A stretch of 64,000 nt of DNA from Planctomycetota bacterium (GCA_039414355.1 JBCDJN010000002.1:42443-106442), one strand, 5' to 3'. Numbered from the stretch's first letter, positions 3,259 through 40,826 are shown. Notes: generated from the letters alone by a model not told the origin. A program made the numbers and translations.

Positions 3259-3476
3259 GGAGGTCCCTTAAGGAATAGGCGGAGGGAGCGGGAATCGTCG
3301 GTTGGACGCGGGGATCACGCGGCGCGTTCCATCCCTTAGCAAGAATTCTGCCGAGGGTGTCGGGCTGGGCGGGAGGCTGGTGATTGGCCGGTTGTTGACC
3401 AACCCGCCGCCGACTGGTTCGCCCTCCCACCGTCGCGGTACTCACCCTCCGGAGGGCCCAGAGAGGGGAATCCGCC

Positions 3477-14683: not shown

Positions 14684-14696
14684 CCGCCAAGATGCC

Positions 14697-15722: not shown

Positions 15723-15799
15723 CGGCCCGCCAAGCGTCCGCCCAACTTCCGGCTAGCACCAACACAACTAGCGCCTAGCGCCTCCCACCTCGCGCCTCC

Positions 15800-18608: not shown

Positions 18609-18658
18609 AGGATTATTGACCGCGGAGTTCGCCGGGGACGCAGAGGACGGGTGACCGT

Positions 18659-19141
18659 GTGTTGATCGACAATCCCTATGCATCGCCAGCAACCGGTGCG
18701 AATCCGGTCGAGGTGAAGACCGGAGTAGCTTGGCTACTGGCGCCGACTGGCGTGTCGAGCGTCGTCCTTGCCGCGTGCGTGTATGCGCATTTTGGGGCAT
18801 GCGGCACACATGTGCCTGACGATGTCGTTCCGATCGGCCTGTTGATCCTGCTTTGGTTTCACGTGATTGTCGCGGGCATTTACGTCGGTGCCTTAACAGT
18901 CGCACTCGCGTTATTTGGAGCCCTCACCAACGCAATCCAGTACCGTCGCTGGACAGCGACGGTACTCGCACCAATAGTCGCTCTCGTGTGGCTTCCGATT
19001 GCGTCTTGGATGACCCCGACTGAGCTCTTAGCGTCTGCAACCGCCGTTCCAATACTCCTTGCTGGCGTCACCTTCGATCTTTGCGCAGTCTACTCCACGT
19101 CCTCTGCGACCTCCGCGGTTAATCAACAACCCAAACAATAG
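18659..19141 (+). CDS. small four-helix membrane protein with N-terminal NPYASP motif
   Basis: 160-aa ORF with a GTG start, beginning VLIDNPYASPATG and containing four hydrophobic helices. Its stop lies 2 nt before the moxR ATG. It is visibly more A/T-rich than its neighbours. Confidence 0.6.
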   Translation: MLIDNPYASPATGANPVEVKTGVAWLLAPTGVSSVVLAACVYAHFGACGTHVPDDVVPIGLLILLWFHVIVAGIYVGALTVALALFGALTNAIQYRRWTATVLAPIVALVWLPIASWMTPTELLASATAVPILLAGVTFDLCAVYSTSSATSAVNQQPKQ

Positions 19142-19143
19142 AC

Positions 19144-20199
19144 ATGAGCGACACCCCCGAAGAGCCCACGCTGCCCGAGGCGGCGATCGTCCCCGATGAG
19201 CCGCAGCCGCCGCTGGCAGCCGAGGCCCTCGTGACGGACGCTGAGCCGACGCCGCTGCAGCGGCTGTACGACGCCATCACCGCCGAGGTGGCCAAGATCT
19301 ACGTCGGCCAGGAGGAGCTGGTGCTCTCGACGCTGGTCGCCCTCTTCTCGGGCGGGCACGTGCTGATTGAAAGCGTGCCCGGCTTGGGCAAGACGCTCTT
19401 TGTTCGCACGCTGGGCAAGGTGCTGGGCTGCAAGTTCGGCCGCATCCAGTTCACGGCGGACCTGATGCCGTCGGACATCACCGGGGCGCCGATCTTCAAC
19501 CTCAAGACGCAGGAGTTCACCTTCCGCCCCGGCCCGGTCTTCACGCAGCTCTTGCTCGCCGACGAGATCAACCGCTCGCCCGCCAAGACGCACGCCGCGC
19601 TGCTGGAGATCATGCAGGAACGCCGCGTGACGGTTGAGAACGACACGCACAAGCTCGACCCGCCGTTCCTGGTCATGGCGACGCAGAACCCGGTGGAGAG
19701 CGAGGGCACGTACAACCTGCCCGAGGCGCAGCTCGACCGCTTCATGTTCAAGGTGATGGTCGATTACCCCTCCGCCGAGGAAGAGGCCCGAGTGCTCAAG
19801 GAGCACAGCCGGCAGGTGGACATCGACAAGCGACTGGCCGAGGAGGTGCGCACCGTCACGTCGCCCGAGCAGGTCATCAAGGCGACCCAGCTCTGCGGCA
19901 AGGTGCGGGTGGAAGAGAAGCTGATCGACTACATCAACCAGCTGGTCCGCCAAACGAGGAGCTGGCCGACGCTGCACTTGGGCGCCTCGCCGCGGGCGGG
20001 GATTGCGTTGATGCAGGGCGCGAGGACGCTGGCCGCCTTCAACGGCCGCGACTACGCCGTGCCCGACGACGTCGCCGAGATCGCCCTGCCCGCGCTCCGC
20101 CACCGCGTGGTGCTCACCGCCGAGGCCGAGGTGGAAGGCCGCGACGTCGACCAGGTGCTGAACGAGCTGATCCGCACGGTTGAAGTCCCGCGGATGTGA
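19144..20199 (+). CDS. MoxR-family AAA+ ATPase
   Basis: 351-aa ORF. Walker A is GHVLIESVPGLGKT and Walker B is LLLADEINR. FLVMATQNPVESEGTYNLPEAQLDRF and ASPRAGIAL are typical MoxR/AAA_3 signatures. Confidence 0.95.
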   Translation: MSDTPEEPTLPEAAIVPDEPQPPLAAEALVTDAEPTPLQRLYDAITAEVAKIYVGQEELVLSTLVALFSGGHVLIESVPGLGKTLFVRTLGKVLGCKFGRIQFTADLMPSDITGAPIFNLKTQEFTFRPGPVFTQLLLADEINRSPAKTHAALLEIMQERRVTVENDTHKLDPPFLVMATQNPVESEGTYNLPEAQLDRFMFKVMVDYPSAEEEARVLKEHSRQVDIDKRLAEEVRTVTSPEQVIKATQLCGKVRVEEKLIDYINQLVRQTRSWPTLHLGASPRAGIALMQGARTLAAFNGRDYAVPDDVAEIALPALRHRVVLTAEAEVEGRDVDQVLNELIRTVEVPRM

Positions 20200-20279
20200 C
20201 AAGCGCACGCAACAAGCTCCCGAAATAGCCTCACGCCTCGGCGCCTTTGCGTTAACGAACCAAGCGTCCCCCAACAGCC

Positions 20280-21737
20280 GTGATTACCCTCTACTGCCTC
20301 GCCGCCTTCATCCTCGGCCTCGTCTTGCTGGCGTGGCTTGGCAGGGTGTACCCCGATCGGGCGTTGGTGACCGCCATGCTCGCGCCGACGGCGCTCTCGG
20401 CCATGCTGATCGCACTGCCGACGCTCTGGCCGGTGGTGGTGGCCGTGGACGTGCTGCTGCTGGTTGTGGTGCTGATCGATCTGGCGTCGCTCGCGCGGGA
20501 GGCGTCTTTCCAGGCGCAGCGGTCGGTCGGCCTGATCGCGTCGCTGGGGCAGCAGCACCCGGTGGAACTGACCGTCACCAACCGTTCCGGGCGCCGGCAG
20601 CCCATCCGTGTGAAGGACGACGTCCCCGAGGGGATGACCGCCGAGCCAGAGGACTTCCGCGTGGTGCTCTCGCCGATGAGCCGGTCGGTGCTGCGGTACC
20701 GAGTGCGGCCGCAGGGGCGGGGCGAGTTCTTCCTGGAGCGCGTTTACCTCCGGGTCGGCAGCCGGTGGGGGTTCTGGCAGCGGCAGCTCGAACTCCCCGT
20801 CCGCAGCCGCATCAACGTCTACCCGGACATGAAGCAACTGGGCGAGTACGCCGTGCTGGCCCGCACCAACCGGCTGAGCCTGATGGGGCTCCGGCGGACG
20901 CGGCGGATCGGGCAGGACAACGAGTTCGAGCGTCTCCGAGACTACACGCTGGACGATAACTTCAAGCACATCGATTGGCGGAGCACCGCCCGCCGCAACA
21001 AGCTCACGGTCAAGGACTTCCAGGCCAACCAGAGCCAGCGGATCATGTTCCTGGTGGACTGCGGCCGGATGATGACCGGCGAAGCGGCCGGCGTGAGCCT
21101 GCTGGATCACGCCCTGAACGCGATGCTGATGCTGGGCTACGTTGCGCTCCGGAGGAGCGATCAGGTGGGCCTGCTCTGCTTCTCCGACCGCGTGCTCTCG
21201 TTCACCCCGCCCAAAGGCGGGAGCGAGCAAACCAGCCGGCTGCTGCACGCCGCGTACAACCGCTTCCCGGAGATGGTGGAGTCTCGCTACGACGAGGCGT
21301 TCTTGCACCTCGCCACGCATGTGCGGAAGCGGACGCTCGTGGTGCTGATCACCAACGTTGTTGACGAAGTAAACGCGACCCAGGTCCGGCGGCACCTGGC
21401 GGCCGTCAACGGCCGGCACCTGCCGCTGGCGGTGCTGCTGCGGGACCATGCGCTGTTCGACGCGGTGGCCCAAGCGGAACCGGCGTACGCTTCGCTTGCC
21501 GGATCGGGCAACGATACGGCAGCGTCAACCTTTCAGCAGCAGCCGGCGCCGGGCGTGGGGCTTTCGAGCGAGAAGCTCTTCCGCGCAGCGGCCGCCGCCG
21601 AGGTGCTAAGCTGGCGCCGGCGCGTTTTGGCCGACTTAGAGACCAGCGGTGTGCTGCTGGTCGACGAGTTTGCCGAAGACCTCACCGCGCCGTTGGTCAA
21701 CCGTTACCTGGAAGCCAAAGCGCGTCACCTGCTCTGA
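20280..21737 (+). CDS. DUF58 (VWA-like) protein, MoxR partner
   Basis: 485-aa ORF with N-terminal TM helices. DNEFERLRDYTLDDNFKHIDWRSTARRNKLTVKDFQANQSQRIMFLVDCGRMM is the DUF58 core. Confidence 0.9.
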   Translation: MITLYCLAAFILGLVLLAWLGRVYPDRALVTAMLAPTALSAMLIALPTLWPVVVAVDVLLLVVVLIDLASLAREASFQAQRSVGLIASLGQQHPVELTVTNRSGRRQPIRVKDDVPEGMTAEPEDFRVVLSPMSRSVLRYRVRPQGRGEFFLERVYLRVGSRWGFWQRQLELPVRSRINVYPDMKQLGEYAVLARTNRLSLMGLRRTRRIGQDNEFERLRDYTLDDNFKHIDWRSTARRNKLTVKDFQANQSQRIMFLVDCGRMMTGEAAGVSLLDHALNAMLMLGYVALRRSDQVGLLCFSDRVLSFTPPKGGSEQTSRLLHAAYNRFPEMVESRYDEAFLHLATHVRKRTLVVLITNVVDEVNATQVRRHLAAVNGRHLPLAVLLRDHALFDAVAQAEPAYASLAGSGNDTAASTFQQQPAPGVGLSSEKLFRAAAAAEVLSWRRRVLADLETSGVLLVDEFAEDLTAPLVNRYLEAKARHLL

Positions 21738-21741
21738 AGAC

Positions 21742-22389
21742 TCAAACGGTCAAAGGGATTGACTGCTCAGCAAACTCGCTTGCCCAGCTAGACACAGTGT
21801 TTGAGTCGTCACTGTCAAACAGGCGACAAGCAAGACGCGCCCTGCGTATCACGCCCTTCTCAAGAGACTGCGAGAACAGACTCCAACGCGATTCTCCGAT
21901 GCCTCCCTGCAAGAACCGCCACTTATGGGAGGCCTCGCGTTGATCACTGGGGTGCACAACCTCACACCAGTCGCCTCCTCCAAGCTGCTGAACGCGCACG
22001 ACGCGCTCTTCGGACATTCGGGGGGCGTAGTCGCTATCGACACCACCGCATGCGCTGACCCGAGAGAGCACGAGGATTACAGGATGCGAGTCGAGCAAAT
22101 CGGTTTCCACAGAAACGATGAACTGCAAGCCTACGCCGTCGCCACGCCAGTACACCTCAGTACGGAACGGAAAAGCGTCGCATGGACCGTAGCTGGCGAC
22201 GAGGTCGGTGCCGCGCGCGTAGTAATCAACTAACGGAAACATCGCGTCTTCGACTGCCGGACGGACGCCAAATGCCTGGACGGCGCTGCCCAGCCGAACC
22301 CCGTCGCCGGGGTGGGAAAGGTCTATCCGTGCGCCTAGCGCGAGACATTCGGCCTTGACCCCATCGATCCGCCAGGAGCAATCAGTCAA
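21742..22389 (-). CDS. hypothetical protein (compositionally atypical)
   Basis: The long ORF runs to 22512, but residues 19-32 of that ORF are the translation of a strong terminator hairpin. I therefore place the start downstream, at TTG 22389. The ATG at 22242 is an alternative. No recognisable domain, and the codons are A/T-richer. Confidence 0.5.
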   Translation of the reverse strand: MTDCSWRIDGVKAECLALGARIDLSHPGDGVRLGSAVQAFGVRPAVEDAMFPLVDYYARGTDLVASYGPCDAFPFRTEVYWRGDGVGLQFIVSVETDLLDSHPVILVLSRVSACGGVDSDYAPRMSEERVVRVQQLGGGDWCEVVHPSDQREASHKWRFLQGGIGESRWSLFSQSLEKGVIRRARLACRLFDSDDSNTVSSWASEFAEQSIPLTV

Positions 22390-22417
22390 AACGGCATAGA
22401 GCGGCGTTAGAAGGCAC

Positions 22418-22457
22418 AAAAAAACCCCGCCGAACACCCGAGGGTGTTGCGACGGGG
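22418..22457 (-). terminator. intrinsic (Rho-independent) terminator on the minus strand
   Basis: The minus-strand RNA reads CCCCGUCGCAACACCC-UC-GGGUGUUCGGCGGGG, about 14-15 bp of stem with one bulge, followed by UUUUUUU (A-run 22418-22424 on the plus strand). Confidence 0.7.
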
Positions 22458-22785
22458 CCGGAACAGAGAAGAGGCCAGAGTCGCTTGCAAAGGGATAACT
22501 GGTATTAGGCAATCGCCTACCGCCGATCGGCGGCTGTCAAGCTCCCCCGGTGTTCCGCACGGTGGGACATACGGGATGTTAGCAGAACGCGAAGTCGTGT
22601 CCAACCATTTGGTGAGAAAACCACAAACGCACCGCCGAACTCCACATTTCGCGAAACGCCGCGCAATGACCGCGGCGTGTCTGCGGCGATCGATCGCGGT
22701 TATGCTCTTCGGTTCGCCAACGGGTCGGCCGGTTATTTCCCATCTCGACCCAAATGCCGCTTGAAAGACGTCTCAGGAGCCTCCG

Positions 22786-23589
22786 ATGGACCCTTCGCAG
22801 TTGACGGAAATCACGGCTGTGGCAAAGGATGCGGCGATTGCCGGCGGGCGGGAGCTGTTGCGGTGGCGGGGCAAATTCAAGACCCGCGAGAAGGGGGCCG
22901 CCGACTTCGTTACCGACGCCGACCTCGCTTCGCAGGAGGCGATCCAGCGGATCGTCGCCGAGCGCTTCCCAAGTCACCTCTTCGTTGGCGAGGAGTCCGA
23001 TGGTGGCGCCCTGGACGCGGCCCAACGCGACACCGAGTCGTTCTGCTGGGTCGTCGACCCCCTGGACGGCACCACCAACTATGTGCACGACTTTCCTAGC
23101 TATGCCGTCTCAATCGCCGTCGCTCAGGCTGGAAAGCCAATAGCAGCAAGCATTTACGACCCGCTTCGAGACGAGCTGTACTGGGCGCAAAAGGGCGCGG
23201 GAGCCTGGCTCGGCGACGGGCGGCTTGAGACTGGGTCGGCGGCAACGCTGGGCGAGGGCCTGGTCGCCATCAGCCTGCCGCCGTCGAACGTCGGCGATTC
23301 GAAGGACTTCCGCGACCTGTTTCAGATTGGTCCCCAGTGCCGGGCGGTGCGGCGGATCGGCTCGGCGGCGCTCAATCTGGCGTACGTGGCGGCGGGGCGG
23401 CTCGACGCGTACTGGGCCCGCGACATCTACCCCTGGGATGTTGCGGCCGGGGTGCTGCTGGTGACCGAGGCGGGCGGCGTCGCCACAAGTATTGATGGGA
23501 ACGAGTTTTACGTCTGGCGGCCCGCCTGCATCGCCTGCTGCGGCGACGCGATCTATCGGCAGCTTTTCGCCGAGCTCTCGGCCGAGTAG
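22786..23589 (+). CDS. suhB: inositol monophosphatase family protein (SuhB-like)
   Basis: 267-aa ORF. It carries FVGEESDG, WVVDPLDGTTNYVHDFPSYAVSIA and the RRIGSAALNLAYVAAGRLDAYW motifs of the IMPase family. Confidence 0.92.
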   Translation: MDPSQLTEITAVAKDAAIAGGRELLRWRGKFKTREKGAADFVTDADLASQEAIQRIVAERFPSHLFVGEESDGGALDAAQRDTESFCWVVDPLDGTTNYVHDFPSYAVSIAVAQAGKPIAASIYDPLRDELYWAQKGAGAWLGDGRLETGSAATLGEGLVAISLPPSNVGDSKDFRDLFQIGPQCRAVRRIGSAALNLAYVAAGRLDAYWARDIYPWDVAAGVLLVTEAGGVATSIDGNEFYVWRPACIACCGDAIYRQLFAELSAE

Positions 23590-23783: not shown

Positions 23784-26700
23784 ATGCCCACCCCACCAAC
23801 AGCCCAAGCCGCGGCGCCCGGTCGACGCCGACCCGCGCCGGCGTTTTGGCTGGCTTGTTGCTTGGCGCTGGCGTTGGGTGGCGAGTGGTCGCGTGCCCAA
23901 CTTCCCGGAACGCCGCCGACCGAACCCCCTACAACGGAAGCCCAGCCCACAGAAGCCCAGCCAACCGAAGCCCCGCTGACCGAGACGCCGCCCTCGCCCG
24001 AGTCGGACCAGCCGGCTGCCAGTCGCGATCGCCAAGCCGCAGAGGACGGGCTGCCGCGGCCTTCGGGTCCCGACACCACGATCTGGATCGGCGGAAACGG
24101 AACGCCTCGCCCCGTCGTCGGGCTTTCGTACGACGAACTGCTGAAGGCGTGGCGGGCGCTGCAGCAACTCGATACCGGACCGAAACTGCCGGCCGTGCTG
24201 CGTGATCGGATCGACCTGAGCGGAACCGTGGAAGGCGATCGTGTCCGAATAACAGCACGCTACGAGTTCACCCTCTCCGCCGATGGCCACGCCGAGGCGC
24301 CGCTCGGCCTTGCCGGCGCGGTGCTGGTTGACGACCCCAAGATCACGGGAGAGTCGCCCAAGGGCCAGCACGTTGACTACCGCCAGGGAGAAGGTGGCTT
24401 CGTAGCCTGGCTTCACGGCAAGGCGGGTGAACGCCGCGTGGTTGAATTGCCGCTGCTCGTGCCGCTGACGCAAGACGATCAACAGACGGTGCTGCGGCTG
24501 AACCTTCCGCGGGCGACGCGGTCCGAGGTTGTCGTGGAGTCGGCCCGGCGGCTCACGCAGACCTTTGTTACCGGCGCGCCGATGCTCGACACAGAAGCGG
24601 CCGACAGCGGTGGCTCACGCCTCCGCGTGCGGGGCGGCGTTGGCATGGTGCAGCTTGGGTGGCGGAGTAAGACCGACACGGTCGCCGCGCCCGCTACCGT
24701 GCTGACCGCGACGAGCGAGATCGCTTGCCGGGTAGACGGAACGAGCGTCCGCAGCCGAGCGGAAGTCACCGTGAGCAGCTACGGCGGGATGATCGAGCGC
24801 TTCCGCGTCCGCCTGCCCGCGGGGTCGTCGCTGCGTCCACGCGCCGAGGCGGAGGGGCAGCCGCGCGTCACGATGCTCGAGGCGGGCGATCGATCGCAAC
24901 GGGTCTGCCTGGTATCGCTGCCTTCGCCGACCAATGAGCCGGTATCGATCACGTTGGAAACCGACCAAACGCTGCCGCTCGCCCCGGAGTCGGCGGCCGA
25001 CCTCGGGGGGTTCGAGGTCCTCGGCGTCGCTCGCCAGCGTGGCGTCGTCGCCATCGAAGTTGCCGAAGGTTGGCGGGCGCAGCTCGGCGGGCTCGACCGG
25101 GTCGCAAAGCTACCGCCGGAGGCTCTGCCGGCCTCGCTTCAGACGCCGCGTCCCACGGCGGCGGTTGAGTTCTTCGGGCAGCCTTTCCGGCTAGGAATCC
25201 GCGTGCAGCGGCAGCCGGTGCGGACCGAGGTCGCGACACGCTATCTCCTCATCCTTCGCCCCGACTCTGCCGAGCTGGGGGTCGCGATCGATTATCGAAT
25301 CACCGGGCAGCGGCGCGGCGCGCTCGTGATCGACTTGGCCGACTGGGCCGGTGCGGAGGTGCTATCGCCCTCGTTGACCGGCGCCGTCGGGACCGATGCC
25401 ATTGCCCTTAGCGGCGACGACGACAGCGAGCTGAGCCTCGCGCTGCCGGCCGACGCGGGCCCCAACGGCACGGCGGAGTTCACCCTGAAGGTCCCGCTAT
25501 CGATCGACAAAGAGCAACTGCAACTGAAGCTGCCCACAGCCCAAGCCACGCTTCATTCCGGTTCGGAGCTGCTGGTGGTGGCAGACCCCTCGCTCGAACT
25601 GACGCCCGACGCCGAGCGGCTGCAGCGGATGCGCGCCACTGCCGTGACCGCCGATACACGAGACCCGCGGGACCCCACCGGTCTGCAGTCATTCCGGTTC
25701 CTTGGTTCGGGGGTTGGCGACGTGTTTGCCGCCCGGGTCCGCCGCCGGCCCGCCGAGGCAACCGTCGCCGTCGGCAGCCAGGTCCGCGTGGGCGAGCAAG
25801 CGACCTTGGTCAAGCAAACCTTCGACTACGACCTACGTCATGCTGCCTTTAACGAACTGCGATTCTCGGTTCCATCGGGAGCGATCGAGTCGTCAACCGT
25901 CGCCTTCAACCTCACGTCGCCCGCTGGAGACCAACCCGGCCCGACTCCGGCCAGGCGTCTTGAGTTCCAGGCCGCCGAGCCTGACGAGGAAGACGCGAAC
26001 CGTGAGGTCTCCGTCGCGCTGCCGCGCCCCTGGATCGGCGCGTGCCGAATCGAGGCTGAGTTCTCATTGCCGGCGGCCCTCGACTCGCTTGAGCGGGGCG
26101 AGCCGATCAGCGCCCCGCTGATTTCACCAATCGGCAGCGAGATCGCGTCGTCTCGCGTCGTCGCCCGCGCCGAAGACGGCTCGCCGTTGACGCTTGGCGA
26201 CAACGCGGCTTCGTGGTCGTCGGCCGAAGACCGTGACGAGGAAGACGGAGCGCTGGTGGCGACGGGCGTCGGGGAAGCGTGGGTGTTGCCGCTGCGCAGG
26301 GCGGACCCACAAGCAAGGACGGCTGAGGCGATTCTCATCCGATCCGCCCGATGGGAAACCTGGATCACACCCACACAGACCCAGCAGAGCGCTGAGTTCA
26401 TCGCGCAGACGTCCGCCGAGGAGGCGACGATTGAGATCGATCCGTCGCTAGCGGACACCGCGGTCGAAGTGACCATCGATGGCCGAACGGCAGATCGGTA
26501 CCGCCGCACCGGGAATCGTTTGATTGTGCGTCTGACCGATGAGGGCAATCCGCCGGACCGTTCGCGACCGATCAGGCACAACATCGCGCTCCGGTACTTC
26601 GAACCGGGTCAGTCGAGCCCAAACTCGGTTGCGTGGCGCCCACCGCGGATGGAGGGCGATTACGTGCTGGCCACCACTTCGTGGGACATCGTGCTCCCCG

Positions 26701-27218
26701 GCGGGCTCACGCCGCTGGCGCCTCCGGTTGGGTTTGCCGCGGTCGGGTCGACCGAGAGCGGCGGCTTCGGCCAGGCAACGCGGCTGCGATTCGGCGGGCT
26801 CGGTACGCCGCCGCAGGACCAAGCCACTGCGCTGCGTTTGGTCTCGCAACCGTTCATCGCTCTGGCGGTCTCAACGGCGGTGCTCGCGGCCGGCCTGGCG
26901 CTGATCTACGCCCCGTGGCTTCGCACCCCGCCTGCGTTGGTGGCCATGGTGGCCGCCCTGGTTGCCATCGGGCTTTGGTTCCCGGGGCAGATGGTCTGGC
27001 TCGCCCGCGCCGGGGTTGCGGGCGCAGCGCTGGCGGCGGCGGCAGGTTTCCTGGCTTGGCTGCTTAGGCCTGTGGCGGAGCTCCGCCCGCGTAGCCAGAC
27101 GCCAATCGGTGGCGCCATGGCCGGGCCGGGGACCGACACCCTGATCCTGGCCCCACTAAGCGCCGTCTCGACCAACGCCCCCACCGCCTCCATGCCCCCG
27201 GCCGACAGCGAACTCTAG
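23784..27218 (+). CDS. giant envelope protein 1: signal peptide, ~1000-aa extracytoplasmic region, three C-terminal TM helices; no assignable family
   Basis: Uninterrupted ORF with an ATG at 23784 (the ORF opens at 23721). It has a signal peptide (RRRPAPAFWLACCLALALGGEWSRAQ) and a Pro/Thr/Glu linker with TEAQP repeats. The C-terminal helices are FIALAVSTAVLAAGLALIY, LVAMVAALVAIGLWF and GVAGAALAAAAGFLAWLL. Confidence 0.8.
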   Translation: MPTPPTAQAAAPGRRRPAPAFWLACCLALALGGEWSRAQLPGTPPTEPPTTEAQPTEAQPTEAPLTETPPSPESDQPAASRDRQAAEDGLPRPSGPDTTIWIGGNGTPRPVVGLSYDELLKAWRALQQLDTGPKLPAVLRDRIDLSGTVEGDRVRITARYEFTLSADGHAEAPLGLAGAVLVDDPKITGESPKGQHVDYRQGEGGFVAWLHGKAGERRVVELPLLVPLTQDDQQTVLRLNLPRATRSEVVVESARRLTQTFVTGAPMLDTEAADSGGSRLRVRGGVGMVQLGWRSKTDTVAAPATVLTATSEIACRVDGTSVRSRAEVTVSSYGGMIERFRVRLPAGSSLRPRAEAEGQPRVTMLEAGDRSQRVCLVSLPSPTNEPVSITLETDQTLPLAPESAADLGGFEVLGVARQRGVVAIEVAEGWRAQLGGLDRVAKLPPEALPASLQTPRPTAAVEFFGQPFRLGIRVQRQPVRTEVATRYLLILRPDSAELGVAIDYRITGQRRGALVIDLADWAGAEVLSPSLTGAVGTDAIALSGDDDSELSLALPADAGPNGTAEFTLKVPLSIDKEQLQLKLPTAQATLHSGSELLVVADPSLELTPDAERLQRMRATAVTADTRDPRDPTGLQSFRFLGSGVGDVFAARVRRRPAEATVAVGSQVRVGEQATLVKQTFDYDLRHAAFNELRFSVPSGAIESSTVAFNLTSPAGDQPGPTPARRLEFQAAEPDEEDANREVSVALPRPWIGACRIEAEFSLPAALDSLERGEPISAPLISPIGSEIASSRVVARAEDGSPLTLGDNAASWSSAEDRDEEDGALVATGVGEAWVLPLRRADPQARTAEAILIRSARWETWITPTQTQQSAEFIAQTSAEEATIEIDPSLADTAVEVTIDGRTADRYRRTGNRLIVRLTDEGNPPDRSRPIRHNIALRYFEPGQSSPNSVAWRPPRMEGDYVLATTSWDIVLPGGLTPLAPPVGFAAVGSTESGGFGQATRLRFGGLGTPPQDQATALRLVSQPFIALAVSTAVLAAGLALIYAPWLRTPPALVAMVAALVAIGLWFPGQMVWLARAGVAGAALAAAAGFLAWLLRPVAELRPRSQTPIGGAMAGPGTDTLILAPLSAVSTNAPTASMPPADSEL

Positions 27219-27247
27219 TCGCCGGATCCCACGCGCCGCTGCCTGGC

Positions 27248-30200
27248 ATGACCCGAATCCGTTGCAAGTTGAATCGCCCGAGCCGAACGCACGCCGGCGC
27301 TATCGTGGCTTGCCTGGTTGCGGCGTGGTTGCTGGGTATGGGGTGCGATGGGGCCGCGGCGGAGACACCGGAGAGCACCGCAACCGCCGGCTACCGGCGG
27401 GTATTTGTTCCGGCTGACCAGCCTGAGGCTTGGCCCACCGACGGCGCACCGCTGTTACCGGTGGAGGCGGGCGAGCTTTCGCGATTGCTTCAATCCGCCG
27501 CCAAGCCGGCCTCGAAGCTCCTCGTCGAATCGATCGAGCTATCTGGCGAAGCGAACCCGGGCGAACCCGTCGAAGGGGAGGGCGTCCTCCGGCTCCGACT
27601 GATGGGCGACAGCCCCGGCTTCCTCCGCCTACCCGCCGGCCCTATGGCGATTGCCGACGCCCGCTGGGCCGGGACCCAAGAAGTTCCCGCGCAGTGGGGC
27701 TGGTGGCCCACGCCGAAGCCGCCCTACGCCGAAAACGACAACGATCCTAGCCGTCGCGGGCCATCGAACCTTGGCGTGCGTGTCCCGGAGTCGGGCGAGC
27801 TGCGCTTCGGCTTCAAACTCTGGCCCGTCGCCGGGCGGTATCGCGTGCCGCTGCCGCCCGCAAGTCGGCGAAGCCTCACGCTTTCGCTCCCCCCCGGTGC
27901 AACGGTGAGCGGCGAGCAGCTTCTCATCGACCCGGCAGAGGACTCAGAAGCCGACACAGATGCGTCGGCCGGACCAAGGGTTCTGCTGCGCCCCGCGGCC
28001 GGGGCGCCGTTAGCGTTTGTGCTCGCGCGGCCCGCAACCGACCAGCGAACGTCGCCGAGCAACTTGTACTCGTTGAGCGCCGTCGCCTCGCTGGTTGATG
28101 ACGGTGTCGAGTCGGAGTGGCGTGTGCAGCTCCGCGGCGAGAGCCGGTTGCCGGAGTCCGTCGCGATCGTCACGCCGCCGGGACTTGTCGTGCTGGACGC
28201 CACTGTGGACGGCGAGCCGGCAACGGTTCGCCGGCGGAACGATGCGACCGAGGCCTACCGAATCCCCTTAGTCGCTCGGGCGATGCCGACGGAGGCGGTG
28301 ATCACGCTTCGCGCATGGACGCGATTCGACAGCGACCAACAAGCCGTCCTGGGAGCGGTGCAAGTGGAAAACGCGGCCTTCCAAGAAGGCGTTCTGCAGC
28401 TCTCGTCGCCCGAGCCCTGGCGGCTGGCCGACCTGGAACTCTCGAAGGGCGCGCTCGTGGAACCGACCACGGGTTCAAACGACGCCTATTCGCTCCGCCT
28501 ACTCGAGAGCAACGCCCTCGTCACCGTGCGACGGCAAGCGATCCGTCCACCGACTCCTTGCGCTATCGTCCATCGGGTCGGGGCGGGGCGGGTTGTTCTA
28601 CGATCCGAATCTCGGCTGCGACCCTCAGACCCAGACGCGCCAATCTCGCTGCGGCTAAGCGATGGTTGGCGTCTGCTGGAGATTGATGTTCCCGGCGGCG
28701 CGTCGCCCTCGTGGCAAGTCACCGCGGATGGGCGAGGCGGACGCGTCCTTGAGATCGATCCCCTCTCAACGGGCCGCGGGGCGTCGGCCAGCGATGCGTT
28801 GAACATCGTTTTGCGCCGTCAGATGCCGCGCGGCCGCGTGCTGCCACTCCCGTTGGCCATTCCTTTCTGGTCGGCTGCGGAGAGCAGGGACGAGCACCGC
28901 CTGGAGCTGACGGCGATCGCTTCGCACGGGCTTGAGATCGGTCGCACGCTGCCGGGCGCTCCGCCGTTTTGGGCCGAGGGCGGCGTGGTTCAGCGGCTCT
29001 CGCTAAATCTTGGTGACCCCGAGACGAAACGCGATCTCGACGCCAGCCTGCTGGGCGTTCGCTGGCGGCAGCGGCGGTTCCGGGCAGACTGTCGTGTCAC
29101 CGTTCAGCCCGGCGAAGACGGCATGCAGTACCAGGGCGAGGTGACGATCCGCGGCGGGCCCGCGGCCGAGTCGGTAGTCGTTCGTTCCTCACCGCCGCTG
29201 CCCGAATTGGCTCAATGGCGCGACATCGTCACCGGCGCTCCCCTTCCGGCGCGGCTGGTCAGAACCGACGACGCGATGCCTGCTCCTTGGCAACTCTGGG
29301 CGGTGCGAACCCCGGTTGGCGTTGGCGAAACGGTGCTGGGCGTTGACGTGGAACTGGCAGGCGCCGCCAGCGGGGCGGTGCCGTTGCTCTCGGCGCCCGC
29401 CGCCGCGGAGCAATCGGGCGTGGTGACCGTGCGTGGCGTTGCGCCGGCGATGCTCTCCGTGGAAGCCATCGGCCTAAAGGCGACGCCAACGGCCGGCGCC
29501 GACGCCGTTGCCTACCGCTACTCGCCGGCGTCGCTTGATGGCTCGACGAACCCGAATCGCTTCGCGCTGGCATTGGACGATCGAGACGCTTCGGGAGGTT
29601 TGAATCCGGGTGTGGAGATCGTCGGCTTGACTTCGCAGTGGCGACCGCCCGGGCGGACGCTGCACACCGCGATCGTCCGCCGGCGACCCGGCGTCACGAG
29701 CTGGCGGTTCCGCCTGCCCGCGAGTGTCGATGTGGCGGGCGTGGAAGACCCATTGGGCCAGCAGCTCGCCATCGATCGGATTGACGCTGGCGCCGAGAGC
29801 GAAACCGGTACGCGCCAATACTTGCTGCGTTTCGGCGACGAATCCGCGGACGACGATGATTCGCCTCTTCTGTTTCACTACGTGGAGACGTCGGCGGGTG
29901 GCGCGAGCGTCCAACCCACGCTGCCAGAGCCTTGGGCCGCCGCCGGCGTTTGGCAGTGGCGTGTTTCGGTCCCGCAGGACTGGGAGTTCCCTCGCCTCGC
30001 CGCGACGGGCGTCTCTTGGCAGCAACGTCTGCTTGGCCCTGCCGCAAGGCGCCCCGAAGCCGACCCCTTCAACCCGCTCCGCTTGTCGGACTGGGCGGCG
30101 CTCTCTCGCCGCGTTAGGCAAGCCGGCGGCGCCCTCCGCGCCGACAGCACACGAAACGAGGCTCCTGCGGATCAATCGGCAACCGACCAAAGCGGGTGGC

Positions 30201-33200
30201 GTGAAGCAACCTTCGACGCGGTCGACGCGCCACCGGCGGACCTGGTGCTGGCGAACGGAGACTCACGCCGACACACGCACTACGCACTCGGGCTGATGGC
30301 GGCCGCGGTTGGATCGTGGTGCTTCGCCGCGCGGCCGCGGGCTTGGCTGCCCGCCGTCGCCGCGGCGGCGGTGGCGGCGTTGGTGTCGCCCGTTGCGCTG
30401 CTGCCGGCCGCCCAGTGCTTGCTATGGGGATTGGTCGCCGCCGGGCCGCTTGCTTGGCTGCTGGCCCGGCAGCCGCAGCCGAACAAGCGGAGCGACGCGT
30501 CGACCACCGAAACGCTCCGCGGCGCCGCGGCGGCGGCGCCAACGCTCCTCGCCGTGATCCTCGCCCTCGGGCTGGCGGGTCTTGCCGCGGCGTCGCCACC
30601 GGTCGAGCCGGTGTTGATCCCCGTTGATGAAACCGGCGCCCCGGTCGACGAACTCCGGTACCTGCACGCGGACTATCTCAAGCGATTGCTCCTGGCCGAC
30701 GCCAACCGTCGGCGCGGCGCGCCCGCAGACGCGGTGGTGCTCGCCGTGGCGTTAGACGGCGTCTTGCAGCGCGCCTCGGCGGACTCGCCGGTGCGACCCG
30801 GGACTTGGCAGATGACTCTGGAAACGCTGGCCGTCGAGAACGGAGCGCAGTTGACTCTGCCGATCGAACGACCGCCCGCCGGCGAACCCGCGTCGGTCAC
30901 CGTCGACGGGTTGCCCGCGCCGGTCCGGTGGCGTCCCAACGGCGACGCGGAGATCGCCCTGCAGGGTGTGGGGCCGCGGCGGGTGGTGGTCAGCTTCCGC
31001 CCGAGGGTGGTGGTCGCCGATGCGGAGTCGGCCGTGCAGATCGCCGTGCCGCCCGGCGTGCCGCCGACGCTGCGAGTCATGGCGCCGCCCGAGCTGCTCG
31101 ACCTCCGCTGCCCGTTCGCTCTGGGCGTCGACCGCGAAGAGAGCGGCGTGCTCAACGGGGTGCTCGACGGCTCGGGCGAAGCACTCGTCTGCTGGACGGA
31201 GCAGCCGTCGCCCTCGCCCGACACGCTGCCGCAGGTCGATGCGTTGGTCCGCGTCGCCATCCAACCTCAAGGGGTGACCGCGGCCGTGCGACTGCTTGGC
31301 GACGCGTCGGGCGCCCGGCTGGAGTTGCGGACGCCCCGCGGTTGGCAATCGCTCGACCGACCGAAGCTCCGGGCGGTCGCCGTCACCCCAACCGCTTCGC
31401 CGGGCGACGCTCAGCAAGGAGACCAAGTCGCCCGGTTCCGAATCGATCGGCTGAGCCCTCTGGGCATGCTGCATTTGCCAGCGATCACCACGGTCGATGG
31501 GACGGTCCGCAAGACGCTGGTTTCGGTCGACTGCGCTCCCGCGCTCCGCCTCAGCGCCTTGCCAGGCGAGGCCGTCGCGATTGACGAGCTCGAGTTTCTT
31601 GAGCGGTGGCCAAAGGCTGACGAAACGAGCGCCGCCGCACGCTCCGCTGCGGCGCTGGCGCCGGGGGTGACTTGGTCGCTCGCCGTAGGCCCGGCGGCCG
31701 TGAGCAACACGACCTCGCAACAACTGAAAGTCTTGGTCGGCACGTCGATCACACAGACGCAGACGATCGTCTCGGCGGGGCTGCTGCCGGGCCGTCGCCT
31801 GGCGTTCGCGGCGCCGCCGAACTTGCTGATCACCGGCGCCCGCTCGATGGCGACGCCCGAGCGGGACCTGCGTTGGACCCGCCCTACGCCCGATCGCGTG
31901 GTGGTCTGGCTCCCCGCCTCCACCTCAGCGGCGACCGGTGTGGCGTTGACCGGAACGATGCCAACCCCCGAAGGGCCGTTCGCGGCGCCGCTCTTGCAAC
32001 TCTCGGCGCCGTCATCCAGCGAAGCCGATCTGCTGATCGCGCGGACGGAAGACGCCTTGGTCGAGATCGAGTCGAGTGCAGCAGCCAGCAATCCACCCGC
32101 TCGCGTCGACGCCGATGGCGACACGCGGTCGGTCGCGTCGATCCGGTTCTTGGCGAACGCCGACCCGCCGGTCCTCACCGTGACGGAGAACGAACCGCGT
32201 TACCGATCGGACGAGACTTCGCGTTACTCACCCAAAGAGACCGGCCTGACGCTCCGGTGGACCACCGAGTTGACGGTGGTCGAAGGCGTGCTCGGGTCGG
32301 CGCCCGTTGCCATCGACCTTCCGCGGTCGGCAACCGTGAAGCTGGTCGAGCCCGAGACGGCTTCCCTATCGCCGCGGGCTCGCCTTGGACCGGGGCGCGT
32401 GGTCCGTTTCGCGGCGCCACTGCGTCCCGGCCAGTCGCAACAGGTTGTGCTCGAGGCGAGCGTTCCCAGCGCCGCGGCGGGCGCCCTTGCCGCTCCTTGG
32501 GCCCGGCTGCCGGGCGCGACTTCGGGCGAGCAAGTGGTCGTGGCGCCAACAGCCGAGTCCGACGCCGAACGCTTCCAGGTCACCGGCTTAGGCCTCACAA
32601 CCAAAGGCCAGGGCGCCGAGTCCGGCCGGTTCACCGCGCGGCGACGCGGGGCAATCGGTCGTTTGCAGCGGCTGCCCCAGAACCAAGTCACCGCGAAGCC
32701 GACGCCGCTCTTGGCCGAGCACCGGCTCGTGGCGCAACTGCCGGGCGAGCGGGTGGTCGTCTCGCGCCTGAGCCTGCTGCCCCGCGACGCCGAGCGGTGT
32801 CGGCTGGCGCTCAAGCCCGGTTGGAAGCTGCGGACGCTGCGGATCGACGGCGCCGACGCCGTCGTCTCGCGGCCGCCGGGCGACGATGGCGTTTGCGAGT
32901 TCGAGCTCCGCTCGCCGGTCCACCCGCAACGACTCGAGGTGACGTCGGTTGGCCCCGCCGATGGGCCGCTCACCGCGCCGCGCCTCGTCGACTCCGATGG
33001 TGGCGTCGTTTCACCCCTGGCGGAGGTTTGGTCGGCACAAGAGCGCGACGGGTTGACGATCGCGCCGCCAGCCAACGCGGAAGAGATTTTGGAACCGGGG
33101 CTCGCCGAGCTGCGGCTTGGGGTTCTGGCCAAGGTAATCGAGGCCCAGGGGGACAGCCCGGCGGCATGGCGGGGCGTGTGGACGCCGCTGGTTCGAGACG

Positions 33201-33661
33201 CGCTGACCGTGGCGCCGCCCGACGCCGACCCGGCCGCGCGGGAAACGCTGAGCGATTGGCTGGAAGCCGCCGTGCTGGAGTCGCCGCGGAGCGGCACGCC
33301 GCGATCGGATCGAGCAGACAACGAACTCGCCGTCGAGCCCGACTCGTGGCGGCACTTCATGGTCAGCAGCGGCGAGGCTCTCAGCGTTTCATCGAGCCGA
33401 CCGGCGGAGACCGGCGTGCGATTCGTGCTCGCCTTTGCCATCGCAACTGTTCTGATCGCCGGCCGCCAGCGCATCTTCTCCGCCGTGCCGAGCACCCGGC
33501 TGCCGACGTACGGGCCCGGCCTGGCGGCGCTCGCGGGTGTTGCGTGGTGGCTGCTGGCCGAGCCGAGCGTGCTTGGCCTGCTGGTCTTGGCGGCTTCTGC
33601 GGCGGGGCAGGTGGCGGGGTTCTTCAAGGCGGCGTGGCGCCGTCAGGACCTGCTGGGGTGA
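27248..33661 (+). CDS. giant envelope protein 2 (2137 aa): two tandem copies of the module architecture seen in protein 1, fused
   Basis: 6.4-kb stop-free ORF with G/C-ending codons, starting 29 nt after the protein 1 stop. It has a signal peptide (AIVACLVAAWLLGMGCDG). One TM cluster lies mid-protein (about aa 1010-1125) and a second lies at the C-terminus. Confidence 0.85.
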   Translation: MTRIRCKLNRPSRTHAGAIVACLVAAWLLGMGCDGAAAETPESTATAGYRRVFVPADQPEAWPTDGAPLLPVEAGELSRLLQSAAKPASKLLVESIELSGEANPGEPVEGEGVLRLRLMGDSPGFLRLPAGPMAIADARWAGTQEVPAQWGWWPTPKPPYAENDNDPSRRGPSNLGVRVPESGELRFGFKLWPVAGRYRVPLPPASRRSLTLSLPPGATVSGEQLLIDPAEDSEADTDASAGPRVLLRPAAGAPLAFVLARPATDQRTSPSNLYSLSAVASLVDDGVESEWRVQLRGESRLPESVAIVTPPGLVVLDATVDGEPATVRRRNDATEAYRIPLVARAMPTEAVITLRAWTRFDSDQQAVLGAVQVENAAFQEGVLQLSSPEPWRLADLELSKGALVEPTTGSNDAYSLRLLESNALVTVRRQAIRPPTPCAIVHRVGAGRVVLRSESRLRPSDPDAPISLRLSDGWRLLEIDVPGGASPSWQVTADGRGGRVLEIDPLSTGRGASASDALNIVLRRQMPRGRVLPLPLAIPFWSAAESRDEHRLELTAIASHGLEIGRTLPGAPPFWAEGGVVQRLSLNLGDPETKRDLDASLLGVRWRQRRFRADCRVTVQPGEDGMQYQGEVTIRGGPAAESVVVRSSPPLPELAQWRDIVTGAPLPARLVRTDDAMPAPWQLWAVRTPVGVGETVLGVDVELAGAASGAVPLLSAPAAAEQSGVVTVRGVAPAMLSVEAIGLKATPTAGADAVAYRYSPASLDGSTNPNRFALALDDRDASGGLNPGVEIVGLTSQWRPPGRTLHTAIVRRRPGVTSWRFRLPASVDVAGVEDPLGQQLAIDRIDAGAESETGTRQYLLRFGDESADDDDSPLLFHYVETSAGGASVQPTLPEPWAAAGVWQWRVSVPQDWEFPRLAATGVSWQQRLLGPAARRPEADPFNPLRLSDWAALSRRVRQAGGALRADSTRNEAPADQSATDQSGWREATFDAVDAPPADLVLANGDSRRHTHYALGLMAAAVGSWCFAARPRAWLPAVAAAAVAALVSPVALLPAAQCLLWGLVAAGPLAWLLARQPQPNKRSDASTTETLRGAAAAAPTLLAVILALGLAGLAAASPPVEPVLIPVDETGAPVDELRYLHADYLKRLLLADANRRRGAPADAVVLAVALDGVLQRASADSPVRPGTWQMTLETLAVENGAQLTLPIERPPAGEPASVTVDGLPAPVRWRPNGDAEIALQGVGPRRVVVSFRPRVVVADAESAVQIAVPPGVPPTLRVMAPPELLDLRCPFALGVDREESGVLNGVLDGSGEALVCWTEQPSPSPDTLPQVDALVRVAIQPQGVTAAVRLLGDASGARLELRTPRGWQSLDRPKLRAVAVTPTASPGDAQQGDQVARFRIDRLSPLGMLHLPAITTVDGTVRKTLVSVDCAPALRLSALPGEAVAIDELEFLERWPKADETSAAARSAAALAPGVTWSLAVGPAAVSNTTSQQLKVLVGTSITQTQTIVSAGLLPGRRLAFAAPPNLLITGARSMATPERDLRWTRPTPDRVVVWLPASTSAATGVALTGTMPTPEGPFAAPLLQLSAPSSSEADLLIARTEDALVEIESSAAASNPPARVDADGDTRSVASIRFLANADPPVLTVTENEPRYRSDETSRYSPKETGLTLRWTTELTVVEGVLGSAPVAIDLPRSATVKLVEPETASLSPRARLGPGRVVRFAAPLRPGQSQQVVLEASVPSAAAGALAAPWARLPGATSGEQVVVAPTAESDAERFQVTGLGLTTKGQGAESGRFTARRRGAIGRLQRLPQNQVTAKPTPLLAEHRLVAQLPGERVVVSRLSLLPRDAERCRLALKPGWKLRTLRIDGADAVVSRPPGDDGVCEFELRSPVHPQRLEVTSVGPADGPLTAPRLVDSDGGVVSPLAEVWSAQERDGLTIAPPANAEEILEPGLAELRLGVLAKVIEAQGDSPAAWRGVWTPLVRDALTVAPPDADPAARETLSDWLEAAVLESPRSGTPRSDRADNELAVEPDSWRHFMVSSGEALSVSSSRPAETGVRFVLAFAIATVLIAGRQRIFSAVPSTRLPTYGPGLAALAGVAWWLLAEPSVLGLLVLAASAAGQVAGFFKAAWRRQDLLG

Positions 33662-40717: not shown

Positions 40718-40826
40718 CCATCCCGTTTCGGCCGCAACACGCGTTGGCGGAGTTTGCCGCTTGGTTGGGGCGTCGGTAGAGTGGGGGTGCGTTTTCATCT
40801 CCCGCCCCACTCCCCCACGCACACCC

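Follow-up and report, generated by a model that had tools for sequence, protein, structure and literature searches.

Two adjacent giant genes with confirmed coding capacity

The window (the whole stretch of 64,000 nucleotides of DNA analysed) contains two consecutive co-directional genes, here called p1 and p2, with the lengths and the spacing that an earlier note on this DNA had described (Table 1). The p1 product is identical to NCBI AAGJ46_00785 from a Planctomycetota MAG; the NCBI version of p2 has 2118 aa, its start being placed 19 codons later than that of the 2137-aa open reading frame. From the window's base composition, the chance of 1144 and 2137 stop-free codons was P ~ 7e-12 and P ~ 2e-21, respectively, and the GC content of third versus second codon positions (GC3 0.79–0.80, GC2 0.56–0.57) followed the coding pattern of the adjacent genes. 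Together with full-length homologues (see below), these values confirmed that p1 and p2 are real genes. Residue counts (Ala 14–15%, Leu 10–11%, Pro 9%, Arg 9%, Val 7–9%) agreed with the biased composition noted earlier, and both products have hydrophobic N-terminal segments and C-terminal transmembrane (TM) clusters, in agreement with that description. The C-termini read ...PPADSEL (p1) and ...WRRQDLLG (p2).

Table 1. Genes, modules and predicted segments at the p1/p2 locus (positions in the window)
Feature	Position	Strand	Description
Conserved 256-aa gene	21742..22512	-	No known family; divergent from the IMPase gene
Inositol-monophosphatase (IMPase)-family gene	22786..23589	+	Pfam Inositol_P, 1.8e-64; directly upstream of p1
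p1 gene	23784..27218	+	1144 aa, ATG start; module 1
p1 signal peptide region	23784..23900	+	aa 1–39; RRR n-region, hydrophobic AFWLACCLALALGG, putative cleavage at SRA/Q
p1 predicted periplasmic all-beta ectodomain	24075..26846	+	aa 98–1021; about five to six beta-sandwich domains (DSSP, pLDDT)
p1 three-TM-helix cluster	26847..27062	+	aa 1022–1093; among the best-conserved segments
p1–p2 spacer	27219..27247	+	29 nt
p2 gene	27248..33661	+	2137 aa, ATG start; modules 2 and 3 fused
Module 2	27248..30475	+	p2 aa 1–1076; signal sequence, ectodomain, 3 TM helices
Module 2 TM helices	30257–30475	+	p2 aa ~1004–1076; helices in model 2
Internal signal-peptide-like helix	30509..30601	+	p2 aa ~1088–1118; helix 149–174 of model 2
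Module 3	30602..33661	+	p2 aa 1119–2137; all-beta ectodomain, three-helix insertion, 3 TM helices
Module 3 three-helix insertion		+	p2 aa ~1949–2011; model 2
Module 3 TM helices	33407–33652	+	p2 aa 2054–2135; model 2

As had been claimed, the two proteins could not be annotated by sequence. Neither matched Pfam (E ≤ 1), NCBIfam (PEP-CTERM models included) or PDB sequences, 12 diverse family members gave no Pfam match at E ≤ 5, and a search of all PDB chains, Ost1/RPN1 entries included, with the A3 profile returned 0 matches at E ≤ 10. No Pfam-detectable cadherin, VCBS, RHS/YD, Big or PKD repeat was present in the family proteins searched. Pfam and NCBIfam detected no PEP-CTERM, autotransporter or T1SS/T9SS signal in p1 or p2, in line with the absence of a PEP-CTERM sorting signal reported earlier, and no lipid or sugar enzyme domain was found in either. 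Every named family member is annotated 'hypothetical protein'; P0022 carries the JGI name 'YD repeat-containing protein', which no precomputed Pfam domain supports. No catalytic family was matched, and the conserved columns of the family alignment, mostly G, P, W, L, F and Y with scattered R and Q, contained no catalytic-type cluster. These two negative results lead to the non-enzymatic reading adopted below.

Three homologous modules

Profile comparisons were based on alignments of the p1 family (A1, 17 sequences, conserved over the full length) and of the p2 family (A2). With hhalign, p1 aligned with p2(1–1124) at a probability of 99.8% (E 2e-28, 948 columns) and with the C-terminal part of p2 (p2C) at 99.1% (E 7e-19), and the two parts of p2 aligned with each other at 99.1% (E 9e-19), the three comparisons extending over 890–950 columns. 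In the reversed-alignment control the module signal was gone, leaving TM-only matches at E ≥ 0.017. These results showed, at the level of sequence profiles, that p1, p2(1–1124) and p2(1125–2137) are end-to-end homologues of ~1,000–1,100 aa each, which share a plan of a signal/anchor helix, an all-beta ectodomain of ~900 aa, three conserved TM helices and a K/R-rich cytoplasmic segment. From N to C terminus, p1 consists of a signal peptide, a disordered linker rich in Pro, Thr and Glu, the beta-sandwich ectodomain, the three TM helices and a disordered cytoplasmic tail. Alignment of p1 with itself (299–766 versus 473–944, probability 95%) revealed an internal repeat with an offset of ~174 aa, and the ectodomains of p1 and p2 are built of tandem beta-sandwich units of ~170 aa. 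The earlier statement that the proteins contain no known repeat therefore fails, given the three paralogous modules and these tandem units.

Predicted fold and topology

Structure prediction followed by a Foldseek search, which the earlier note had proposed, gave two independent AF2 models (p1, and model 2 for p2; pLDDT 74 and 70, 80–93 within domains), both all-beta with three TM helices. Since pTM was 0.38–0.39 and inter-domain geometry is unpredicted, the 'legs' and the 'pseudo-trimer' invoked below are extrapolations. The best matches were Ost1/RPN1 and integrin-alpha legs. For p1, the top matches were 8b6l_O, 6ezn_A and 6s7t_E (Ost1/ribophorin I; E 1e-9, 415–471 columns, nearly the whole target), and the same chains were found again for p2C (E 3e-7 to 2e-6), with ~410–470 aligned columns over the two models. 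Integrin-alpha legs matched both models (E 3e-8 to 1e-6, 750–890 columns, TM-score 0.08–0.18, 8–12% identity), and module 3 also matched an M1-aminopeptidase N-domain. The low TM-scores (≤0.32) restrict all these matches to the domain level. Because integrin legs scored about as well as Ost1, the match is perhaps one to generic beta-sandwiches, and the models suggest only a generic fold-class resemblance to integrin legs. The arrangement of a ribophorin-type fold, in which large beta-sandwich domains in tandem precede a TM anchor, is present as a resemblance only. By sequence, no relationship to Ribophorin I was found: p1, p2 and 12 relatives gave no PF04597 match, and the A3 profile matched no PDB chain.

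In the p1 model a helix at 20–31 falls within the signal peptide region, and the sequence pattern there suggests cleavage. The TM cluster of p1 has the family consensus S1030, L1034, G1037, Y1042, R1047, P1067, Q1075 and G1080. Across 154 sequences, loop 1 carries 1.56 K+R and 0.01 D+E, loop 2 carries 0.05 K+R and 0.73 D+E, and the tail carries 4.2 K+R; these counts fit the positive-inside rule with an Nout-Cin orientation. Among the most conserved segments (2.2–2.3 bits) are the TM helices and the part of the chain nearest the membrane, and the ectodomain, which makes up ~90% of the mass, shows conservation from end to end. With polar R, Q, S and Y positions among those strongly conserved in them, the TM helices could have a membrane-embedded activity instead of being a plain anchor.

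The clusters of three TM helices described earlier were found once per module, hence twice in p2; p2 has, in addition, a fourth helix at ~1088–1118. A K/R-rich loop, a hydrophobic stretch and an 'IPVD..G.P' motif occur in 25 of 25 aligned p2 homologues and also in the fused protein P0143 (see below). Following the K/R-rich loop, the fourth helix would bring the chain back to the periplasm, and it is a possible signal-peptidase site. All three ectodomains would then be periplasmic, and the long extracytoplasmic region proposed earlier is predicted, from the models and the charge pattern in homologues, for the bulk of p1 and p2.

A conserved gene pair of planctomycetes

The family profile matched 5124 clusters at 50% identity, and the window's p1 (P0001) scored 1113 bits over profile positions 4–1108. 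Named members are nearly all from Planctomycetota, including Pirellulales and Planctomycetales, and p2 homologues range from 1.8 to 3.7 kaa. The order p1→p2 was kept in 36 of 36 related loci examined. Stop and start overlap by 4 nt in L002, L004/L005, L006 and JGI 3300056388 according to the caller's gene coordinates, and in six more loci according to our own ORF calls; the gap is 9–13 nt in L001 and L032. In one genome a single protein of 3410 aa (P0143) contains all three modules fused. These results showed that p1 and p2 form a conserved two-gene unit of Planctomycetia, consistent with the two-gene operon proposed earlier, the co-directional pair being tightly linked or fused in relatives. 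The window's pair has each of the family's defining features: the ~1,100-position profile, the three-TM cluster and the p1→p2 order. The family defined here is large and unnamed, occurs in two orders or more and has no entry in Pfam or NCBIfam.

Neighbouring genes

Only the IMPase-family gene recurred next to the pair on the same strand. It lay directly upstream of p1 in 21 of 30 loci and also in Planctomicrobium (L032, Planctomycetales); its stop overlaps the p1 start in L035, and the gaps are usually 130–400 nt. It is missing from L002, L006, L007, L009, L011, L031 and L033; in L006 the second gene after p2 encodes a myo-inositol-1-phosphate synthase. The phosphatase reached none of the NCBIfam equivalog cut-offs, so that a SuhB, HisN or CysQ-like identity is equally possible. 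Expression of the p1/p2 pair seems to be that of a housekeeping unit, which an IMPase/SuhB-like gene often precedes. That this neighbour is conserved in two orders may point to a link with metabolism, for which the scaffold model proposed below offers no explanation.

The earlier note had placed the pair two genes downstream of MoxR-DUF58, and this was correct: DUF58 ends at 21737, with two genes between it and p1. A gap of ~1 kb and the 256-aa gene separate DUF58 from the IMPase gene; lying on the opposite strand, the 256-aa gene breaks operon continuity from DUF58 to the giant genes. This gene matched no Pfam or NCBIfam family and has homologues at the same position and orientation in 18 of 30 loci. 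MoxR/DUF58 occurred within 10 kb in 2 of 30 related loci (L013 and L019), thus in 3 of 31 with the window, all three with the order MoxR-DUF58-(256-aa gene)-IMPase-p1-p2, and none was near the pair in L031–L035. The synteny of the loci examined revealed no conserved linkage to MoxR, on which the earlier note had staked the connection. The MoxR cluster (RDD-SpoIIM-DUF4129-DUF4350-MoxR-DUF58) looks self-contained. BatD (PF13584) and VWA domains were absent from p1, p2 and 12 diverse relatives, and no BatA/B/C-type VWA or TPR genes flanked the pair. Identity with BatD, or with another Bat operon component, was not supported, for want of a PF13584 match and of a conserved Bat context.

A candidate periplasmic scaffold and its alternatives

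We consider it moderately probable that p1 and p2 form a non-enzymatic, cytoplasmic-membrane-anchored, pseudo-trimeric periplasmic scaffold of three paralogous modules. The signal peptide of the third module would survive in p2 as the fourth TM helix, re-exporting the chain, and signal peptidase may cut p2 at this helix. One copy each of the three modules (1:1:1) would make up a single complex in the cytoplasmic membrane, with three long beta-sandwich 'legs' on a bundle of about ten TM helices, and this complex would act in the planctomycete periplasm as a structural or binding scaffold (a tether, spacer or docking platform) and not as an enzyme, secreted adhesin or MoxR client. That there is one complex is probable from the gene order and the one fusion. 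As the genes are real and linked, unannotatable, predicted to encode mostly extracytoplasmic proteins and nearly confined to Planctomycetota, a planctomycete envelope scaffold, the label suggested earlier, is still the most reasonable one.

A bolder and rather unlikely version is a planctomycete-wide tripartite membrane machine that has no characterised bacterial counterpart, with three paralogous ribophorin-I-like legs on a ten-helix core and with p2, or the fusion, as a natural polyprotein that signal peptidase cuts at relics of internal signal peptides. Such a machine would set or sense how the unusually large periplasm is built, or serve exported proteins as an OST/translocon-like docking platform. 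It is unlikely, too, that the sandwich pairs, like Ost1/RPN1 in the eukaryotic OST-translocon, bind extended polypeptides or glycans beside a Sec translocon or GT-C glycosyltransferase and so assist exported proteins in their biogenesis or modification. Ost1/RPN1 chains led the matches of p1 and recurred for the independently modelled p2C, the M1-aminopeptidase N-domain also matched is a peptide-binding beta-sandwich, and next to a distant homologue in Wallbacteria, on its downstream side, a YfhO-like GT-C protein is encoded; however, even by profile there is no sequence similarity to Ribophorin_I or any PDB chain, the pair has no recurrent Sec, YidC, STT3/PglB or GT-C neighbour in planctomycete loci, integrin legs score about equally, and each module has three TM helices versus one in Ost1. 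A tie to inositol-phosphate metabolism, for instance a part in assembling, flipping or anchoring an envelope lipid or glycan that contains inositol, would account for the upstream IMPase-family gene (with its overlap in L035) and for the synthase in L006, but we regard it as quite doubtful given the equivalog scores, the usual gaps, the loci without the gene and the lack of lipid or sugar enzyme domains in p1 and p2.

The ~10-TM bundle might instead be the functional core (a channel, transporter or mechanosensor), with the ectodomains as regulatory or gating appendages. The conservation of the TM and membrane-proximal segments and of polar R1047, Q1075, S1030 and Y1042 points in this direction, but the lack of a transporter or channel family match, the very short loops, the absence of a cytoplasmic domain and the conservation of the dominant ectodomain throughout make it decidedly doubtful. 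Large size, richness in beta-sandwiches and signal peptides would suit cell-surface adhesins or S-layer-like giant proteins, and planctomycete giant genes are described in reviews as linked to the cell surface or extracellular space (PMC12673574). Such a role is nevertheless highly improbable: three multi-helix, positive-inside TM clusters are predicted to tie all modules to the cytoplasmic membrane, the sorting signals and cadherin, VCBS and RHS domains searched for were lacking, and length and order show rigid conservation, in contrast to adhesins, whose repeat numbers vary. It is equally hard to credit p1 and p2 as clients or partners of MoxR-DUF58 that take the place of BatD in a Bat-type aerotolerance operon. 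The shared gene order in the window, L013 and L019 and the similar build of BatD favour this reading, but synteny largely refutes it (28 of 30 loci, and L031–L035 as well, have no MoxR/DUF58 within 10 kb), and the intervening opposite-strand gene, the ~1-kb gap, the lack of BatD/VWA domains and the self-contained appearance of the MoxR cluster leave it unsupported.

To our knowledge, few molecular parts of planctomycete cell-envelope biology, for example of the enlarged periplasm, crateriform structures or FtsZ-less division, have been named. Here two 'hypothetical proteins' become a defined family of more than 5,000 clusters at 50% identity with a clear three-module architecture, whose fixed gene order and fusion point to a complex; experimenters gain a concrete target and curators material for a new family model, and a misleading MoxR/Bat lead is removed. 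If the internal signal-peptide relics are cleaved, the family would provide a rare example from bacteria of a membrane polyprotein that signal peptidase processes.

Comparison with known systems

BatD, found in the Bat aerotolerance operon of Bacteroides, is a beta-rich TM protein with a signal peptide. The p1 and p2 proteins resemble it in their signal peptide, beta-rich extracytoplasmic region and C-terminal membrane anchor and, here, in lying downstream of MoxR-DUF58, but they are 2–4 times larger and triplicated. Ribophorin I/Ost1 is a non-catalytic subunit of the eukaryotic oligosaccharyltransferase (OST). It shares with the modules tandem, non-cytoplasmic beta-sandwich domains of ~200 aa directly before the membrane anchor, and both would be non-enzymatic; it has two sandwiches and one TM helix, whereas the modules are bacterial and triplicated, with 5–6 sandwiches and three TM helices, and the catalytic OST partner of Ost1 has no counterpart near p1/p2. 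Integrin-alpha legs (thigh/calf) and other multi-Ig-like ectodomains are likewise long strings of beta-sandwiches that end in a membrane anchor, but p1 and p2 have neither the beta-propeller head nor the metal-binding site of integrin alpha, and they have another number of TM helices. By the definition quoted in PMC12673574, which cites Reva & Tummler 2008 and Kohn et al. 2016, planctomycete 'giant genes' exceed 5 kb. At 6.4 kb p2 is above this limit, and its product is predicted to be envelope-associated. The giant genes described so far are mostly lineage-specific, repeat-variable and extracellular or NRPS/PKS-like, whereas p1 and p2 lack Pfam domains, are conserved in length across at least two orders and are predicted to be anchored by multiple passes through the membrane.

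Three homologous modules in two genes

The conserved two-gene unit formed by p1 (module 1) and p2 (modules 2 and 3) encodes three paralogous beta-sandwich/3-TM modules. Profile-profile comparison of the family alignments (A1, 17 p1 sequences; A2, 8 p2 sequences) found p1, p2(1–1124), termed p2N, and p2(1125–2137), termed p2C, to be homologous end to end: p1 matched p2N at E = 2e-28 (probability 99.8%, 948 columns) and p2C at E = 7e-19 (probability 99.1%), and p2N matched p2C at E = 9e-19 (probability 99.1%). Plain BLASTP of p1 against p2 gave just E = 0.04–0.13, and the paralogy is clear only by profile-profile comparison. Because a control with one alignment reversed left nothing but TM-versus-TM noise (E ≥ 0.017), the signal is homology rather than Ala/Pro/Arg composition. 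Inside p1, an off-register self-match of residues 299–766 to 473–944 (probability 95%) revealed a tandem unit of ~174 aa. With this unit and the homologous modules, the statement of the earlier note that the proteins hold no known repeat has to be given up. The AF2 model of p1 has a pLDDT of 74 (80–93 in the domains); an independent second model spans p2 aa 940–2137 (pLDDT 70).

Features of the window, of p1 and p2, and of a natural fusion protein
Feature	Position	Strand	Size or description	Source
RDD-SpoIIM-unknown-DUF4129-DUF4350-MoxR(AAA_3)-DUF58 cluster	13619–21737	+	upstream of p1; self-contained	
c4	21742–22512	-	conserved; between DUF58 and p1	
IMPase-family gene	22786–23589	+	between DUF58 and p1	
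p1	23784–27218	+	1144 aa	
p2	27248–33661	+	2137 aa	
DUF1559, PSCyt1/2-PSD1 and DUF1501 genes			nearby in the window	
p1 N-terminal linker			disordered	AF2 model
p1 all-beta region	aa 98–1021		five or six domains	AF2 model
p1 three TM helices	aa 1022–1093		followed by disordered tail	AF2 model
p2 C-terminal part	aa 940–2137		three TM helices, fourth helix, all-beta ectodomain (N to C)	second model
p2 three-helix insertion	aa ~1949–2011		before the three terminal TM helices	second model
p2 loop and signal-like stretch	30476–30601 (p2 aa 1077–1118)		equivalent region in homologues P0020–P0202	
P0143 TM clusters	aa 996–1074, 2173–2236, 3334–3402			

Topology and an internal signal-like segment

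In 154 p1-type sequences, K+R and D+E number 1.56 and 0.01 in the TM1-TM2 loop and 0.05 and 0.73 in the TM2-TM3 loop; the first 25 residues of the tail have 4.2 K+R. These counts agree with the positive-inside rule, as would be expected if the p1-type ectodomain lies outside and the tail lies inside. Behind its first TM cluster, p2 carries a K/R-rich loop and a signal-peptide-like hydrophobic stretch, often with a small-x-small end, in that order; the module-start motif RVFIPVD..G.P.G comes next, and the whole series is kept in 25/25 aligned homologues. P0143, a 3410-aa p1+p2 fusion, has the loop/stretch/motif pattern after each of its two internal TM clusters. Since loop, signal-like stretch and module-start motif follow internal TM clusters, the best reading of p2 is a head-to-tail fusion of two p1-like precursors. 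Its relic internal signal peptide would re-export the chain, and all three ectodomains would be periplasmic, as the sequence statistics suggest. The signal-like stretch may also hold a putative internal signal-peptidase site; if it were cleaved, p2 would be a membrane polyprotein.

Integrity of the reading frames

Both ORFs have the positions, sizes and 29-nt spacer that the earlier note assigned to them, and the composition, N-terminal hydrophobic signal-like segments and TM clusters it described were all found in p1 and p2. The G+C content of the window DNA is 65–72%; at the window base composition, the chance of a stop-free run is ~7e-12 for the length of p1 and ~2e-21 for that of p2. Both genes carry the codon-position signature GC3>>GC2, as adjacent genes do. 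A promoter/terminator scan returned 6 terminator-like sites against 8.6 expected by chance. In NCBI the proteins are AAGJ46_00785 and AAGJ46_00790 (Planctomycetota MAG), each named 'hypothetical protein'. The NCBI start of p2 lies 19 codons further 3' (2118 aa). Because it leaves the signal sequence without its charged n-region (MTRIRCKLNRPSR...), and because most aligned p2 homologues have a Met-initiated extension, of poorly conserved sequence, before the hydrophobic stretch, ATG 27248 seems preferable as the start. We also rejected p2 as a lipoprotein ('LLGMGC'), since conservation of the Cys is lacking in the A2 consensus.

Copies split into several ORFs (L003, L012, L016, L022, L026, L028, L030 and L035) occur almost only in 'contig_N'/MFD assemblies, the source of all eight of these loci; their names point to sequencing by long reads. 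In at least one of them, L028, genes beside the pair are also broken up: IMPase and one other. The assembly names and the fragmented neighbours suggest indel errors of assembly, not decay, and a pseudogene was rejected on the same grounds. L026, binned as Gemmatimonadales, is probably mis-binned, since its synteny is of Pirellulales type.

Family spread and gene order

An exhaustive profile search gave 5124 clusters (50% identity) at E ≤ 1e-3 and 2304 at E ≤ 1e-30; of the top 150, almost all have lengths of ~1,050–1,250 aa and full-length matches. Almost no taxonomy was gained from the cluster members of 10 representatives, most being unnamed metagenome proteins. Proteins of p2 type (1.8–3.7 kaa) are found in Pirellulales, Lacipirellulaceae, Thermogutta, Planctomycetaceae and Planctomicrobium, and a distant variant with four clusters is labelled Candidatus Wallbacteria. 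This 3152-aa homologue (L034 10001–23425, a Candidatus Wallbacteria MAG) has four TM clusters. The two genes that follow code for an unknown protein of 528 aa and a YfhO-like membrane protein of GT-C type (766 aa).

Gene order is fixed: p1 is followed by p2 on one strand in 36/36 related loci (24 loci were gathered with the pattern FRVRLPPG of alignment subset A3 and are biased towards Pirellulales). The two genes overlap by 4 nt (stop/start) in L002, L004/5, L006 and the JGI 3300056388 contig (caller's coordinates), and by our own ORF calls in L008, L011, L012, L014, L021 and L025. In L031 (GCA_046349855.1, 8001–18233) all three modules are encoded by one gene, that of P0143. Fixed order, overlaps and fusion are classic signs of a physical complex with a set stoichiometry; given this order, the coupled translation and the fusion, all modules would join 1:1:1 in one cytoplasmic-membrane complex.

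Neighbouring genes and rival readings

By analogy with Bat aerotolerance operons, the earlier note raised the idea that the pair are clients or partners of the MoxR module upstream. By tblastn of the window neighbours, MoxR and DUF58 were found in 2/30 related loci, L013 and L019; only there does the cluster lie next to c4-IMPase-p1-p2, with MoxR 75–78% identical and p1 merely 24–28%. MoxR was near the pair in 0/5 of L031–L035, and no BatD signal was detected in p1, p2 or 12 diverse relatives. With adjacency this rare and BatD signal absent, the MoxR-client reading is not supported. An inositol-linked function is another rival: the IMPase-family gene, in 21/30 loci, is the one recurrent same-strand partner of p1-p2, the IMPase-p1-p2 arrangement persists even in Planctomicrobium (Planctomycetales), and the stop codon of IMPase and the start codon of p1 overlap in L035. 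L006 is without IMPase; downstream of p2 (17697–20062) it has TANGO2-family and myo-inositol-1-phosphate synthase genes, the latter two genes 3' of p2, a second, independent inositol-pathway neighbour. The IMPase stayed under all cut-offs of the NCBIfam equivalog models, so the enzyme could be SuhB-, HisN- or CysQ-like.

Another rival places the activity in the TM core. Conservation extends along the entire protein, with a slight rise at the ectodomain start, at aa 320–520 and in the membrane-proximal and TM region; conserved columns are mainly G, P, W, L, F and Y with scattered R and Q, and no catalytic-type cluster was found among them. A surface adhesin is a further rival. From the fold class, and as catalytic signatures are lacking, we propose that the complex may serve the planctomycete periplasm as a scaffold, tether or docking platform that is not an enzyme. 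We lean, with some reserve, towards this reading as a whole (three modules, periplasmic ectodomains, 1:1:1 complex, non-enzymatic scaffold), in which the architecture and the complex stand on much firmer ground than the role as scaffold.

The c4 protein (256 aa) matched no Pfam or NCBIfam family; its homologues (~250 aa, C-terminal '...EKGVIRRARL...PLTT') stand upstream of IMPase, in divergent orientation, in 18/30 loci. A small GNAT acetyltransferase gene lies directly 3' of p2 on the same strand in L004 (17405–17923), L008, L009, L012, L014 and L031, followed in L031 by an acyltransferase. Elsewhere in the window (39362–41318, +), a Wza-like gene for polysaccharide export (Poly_export/SLBB) runs to 40717; it may overlap an open frame, translated here from 40704, in which nickel superoxide dismutase (Sod_Ni, 2e-31) was detected.

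Comparison with known systems

Pfam and NCBIfam gave nothing beyond noise for p1, p2 and 12 diverse relatives, nor did PDB sequences by phmmer or profile hmmsearch, which bears out the earlier view that the proteins resist annotation by sequence. No description of the family was found in literature on planctomycete giant genes, ribophorin in planctomycetes, BatD/DUF2207/DUF4139 or the Ost1 fold. What is new is that the module is triplicated, that a signal peptide persists internally as a relic and that the distribution is planctomycete-wide; the fold class and the plan of a membrane-anchored beta-sandwich array were already known, and the sequences were public, though unnamed. The family is a well-defined target for planctomycete cell biology and overturns nothing in present understanding.

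The first Foldseek match of the p1 model was ribophorin I/Ost1 of the OST complex (E = 1e-9, 415–471 columns, about the whole target), followed by integrin-alpha legs and other multi-sandwich ectodomains. The p2C model independently matched integrin legs, RPN1/Ost1 (E = 3e-7 to 2e-6) and the beta-sandwich N-domain of M1 aminopeptidase. Differences in domain orientation keep the TM-scores low (≤0.32). Ost1 domains may be similar to M1-aminopeptidase/LTA4H N-domains. A ribophorin-like handling platform is a rival to the scaffold reading; the resemblance is domain-level, not family membership, and p1 and p2 differ from Ribophorin_I and all PDB chains in having no sequence similarity to them, even by profile. 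What they share with ribophorin I/Ost1 and integrin legs, at the level of domains, is a series of big beta-sandwiches with a membrane anchor at the end.
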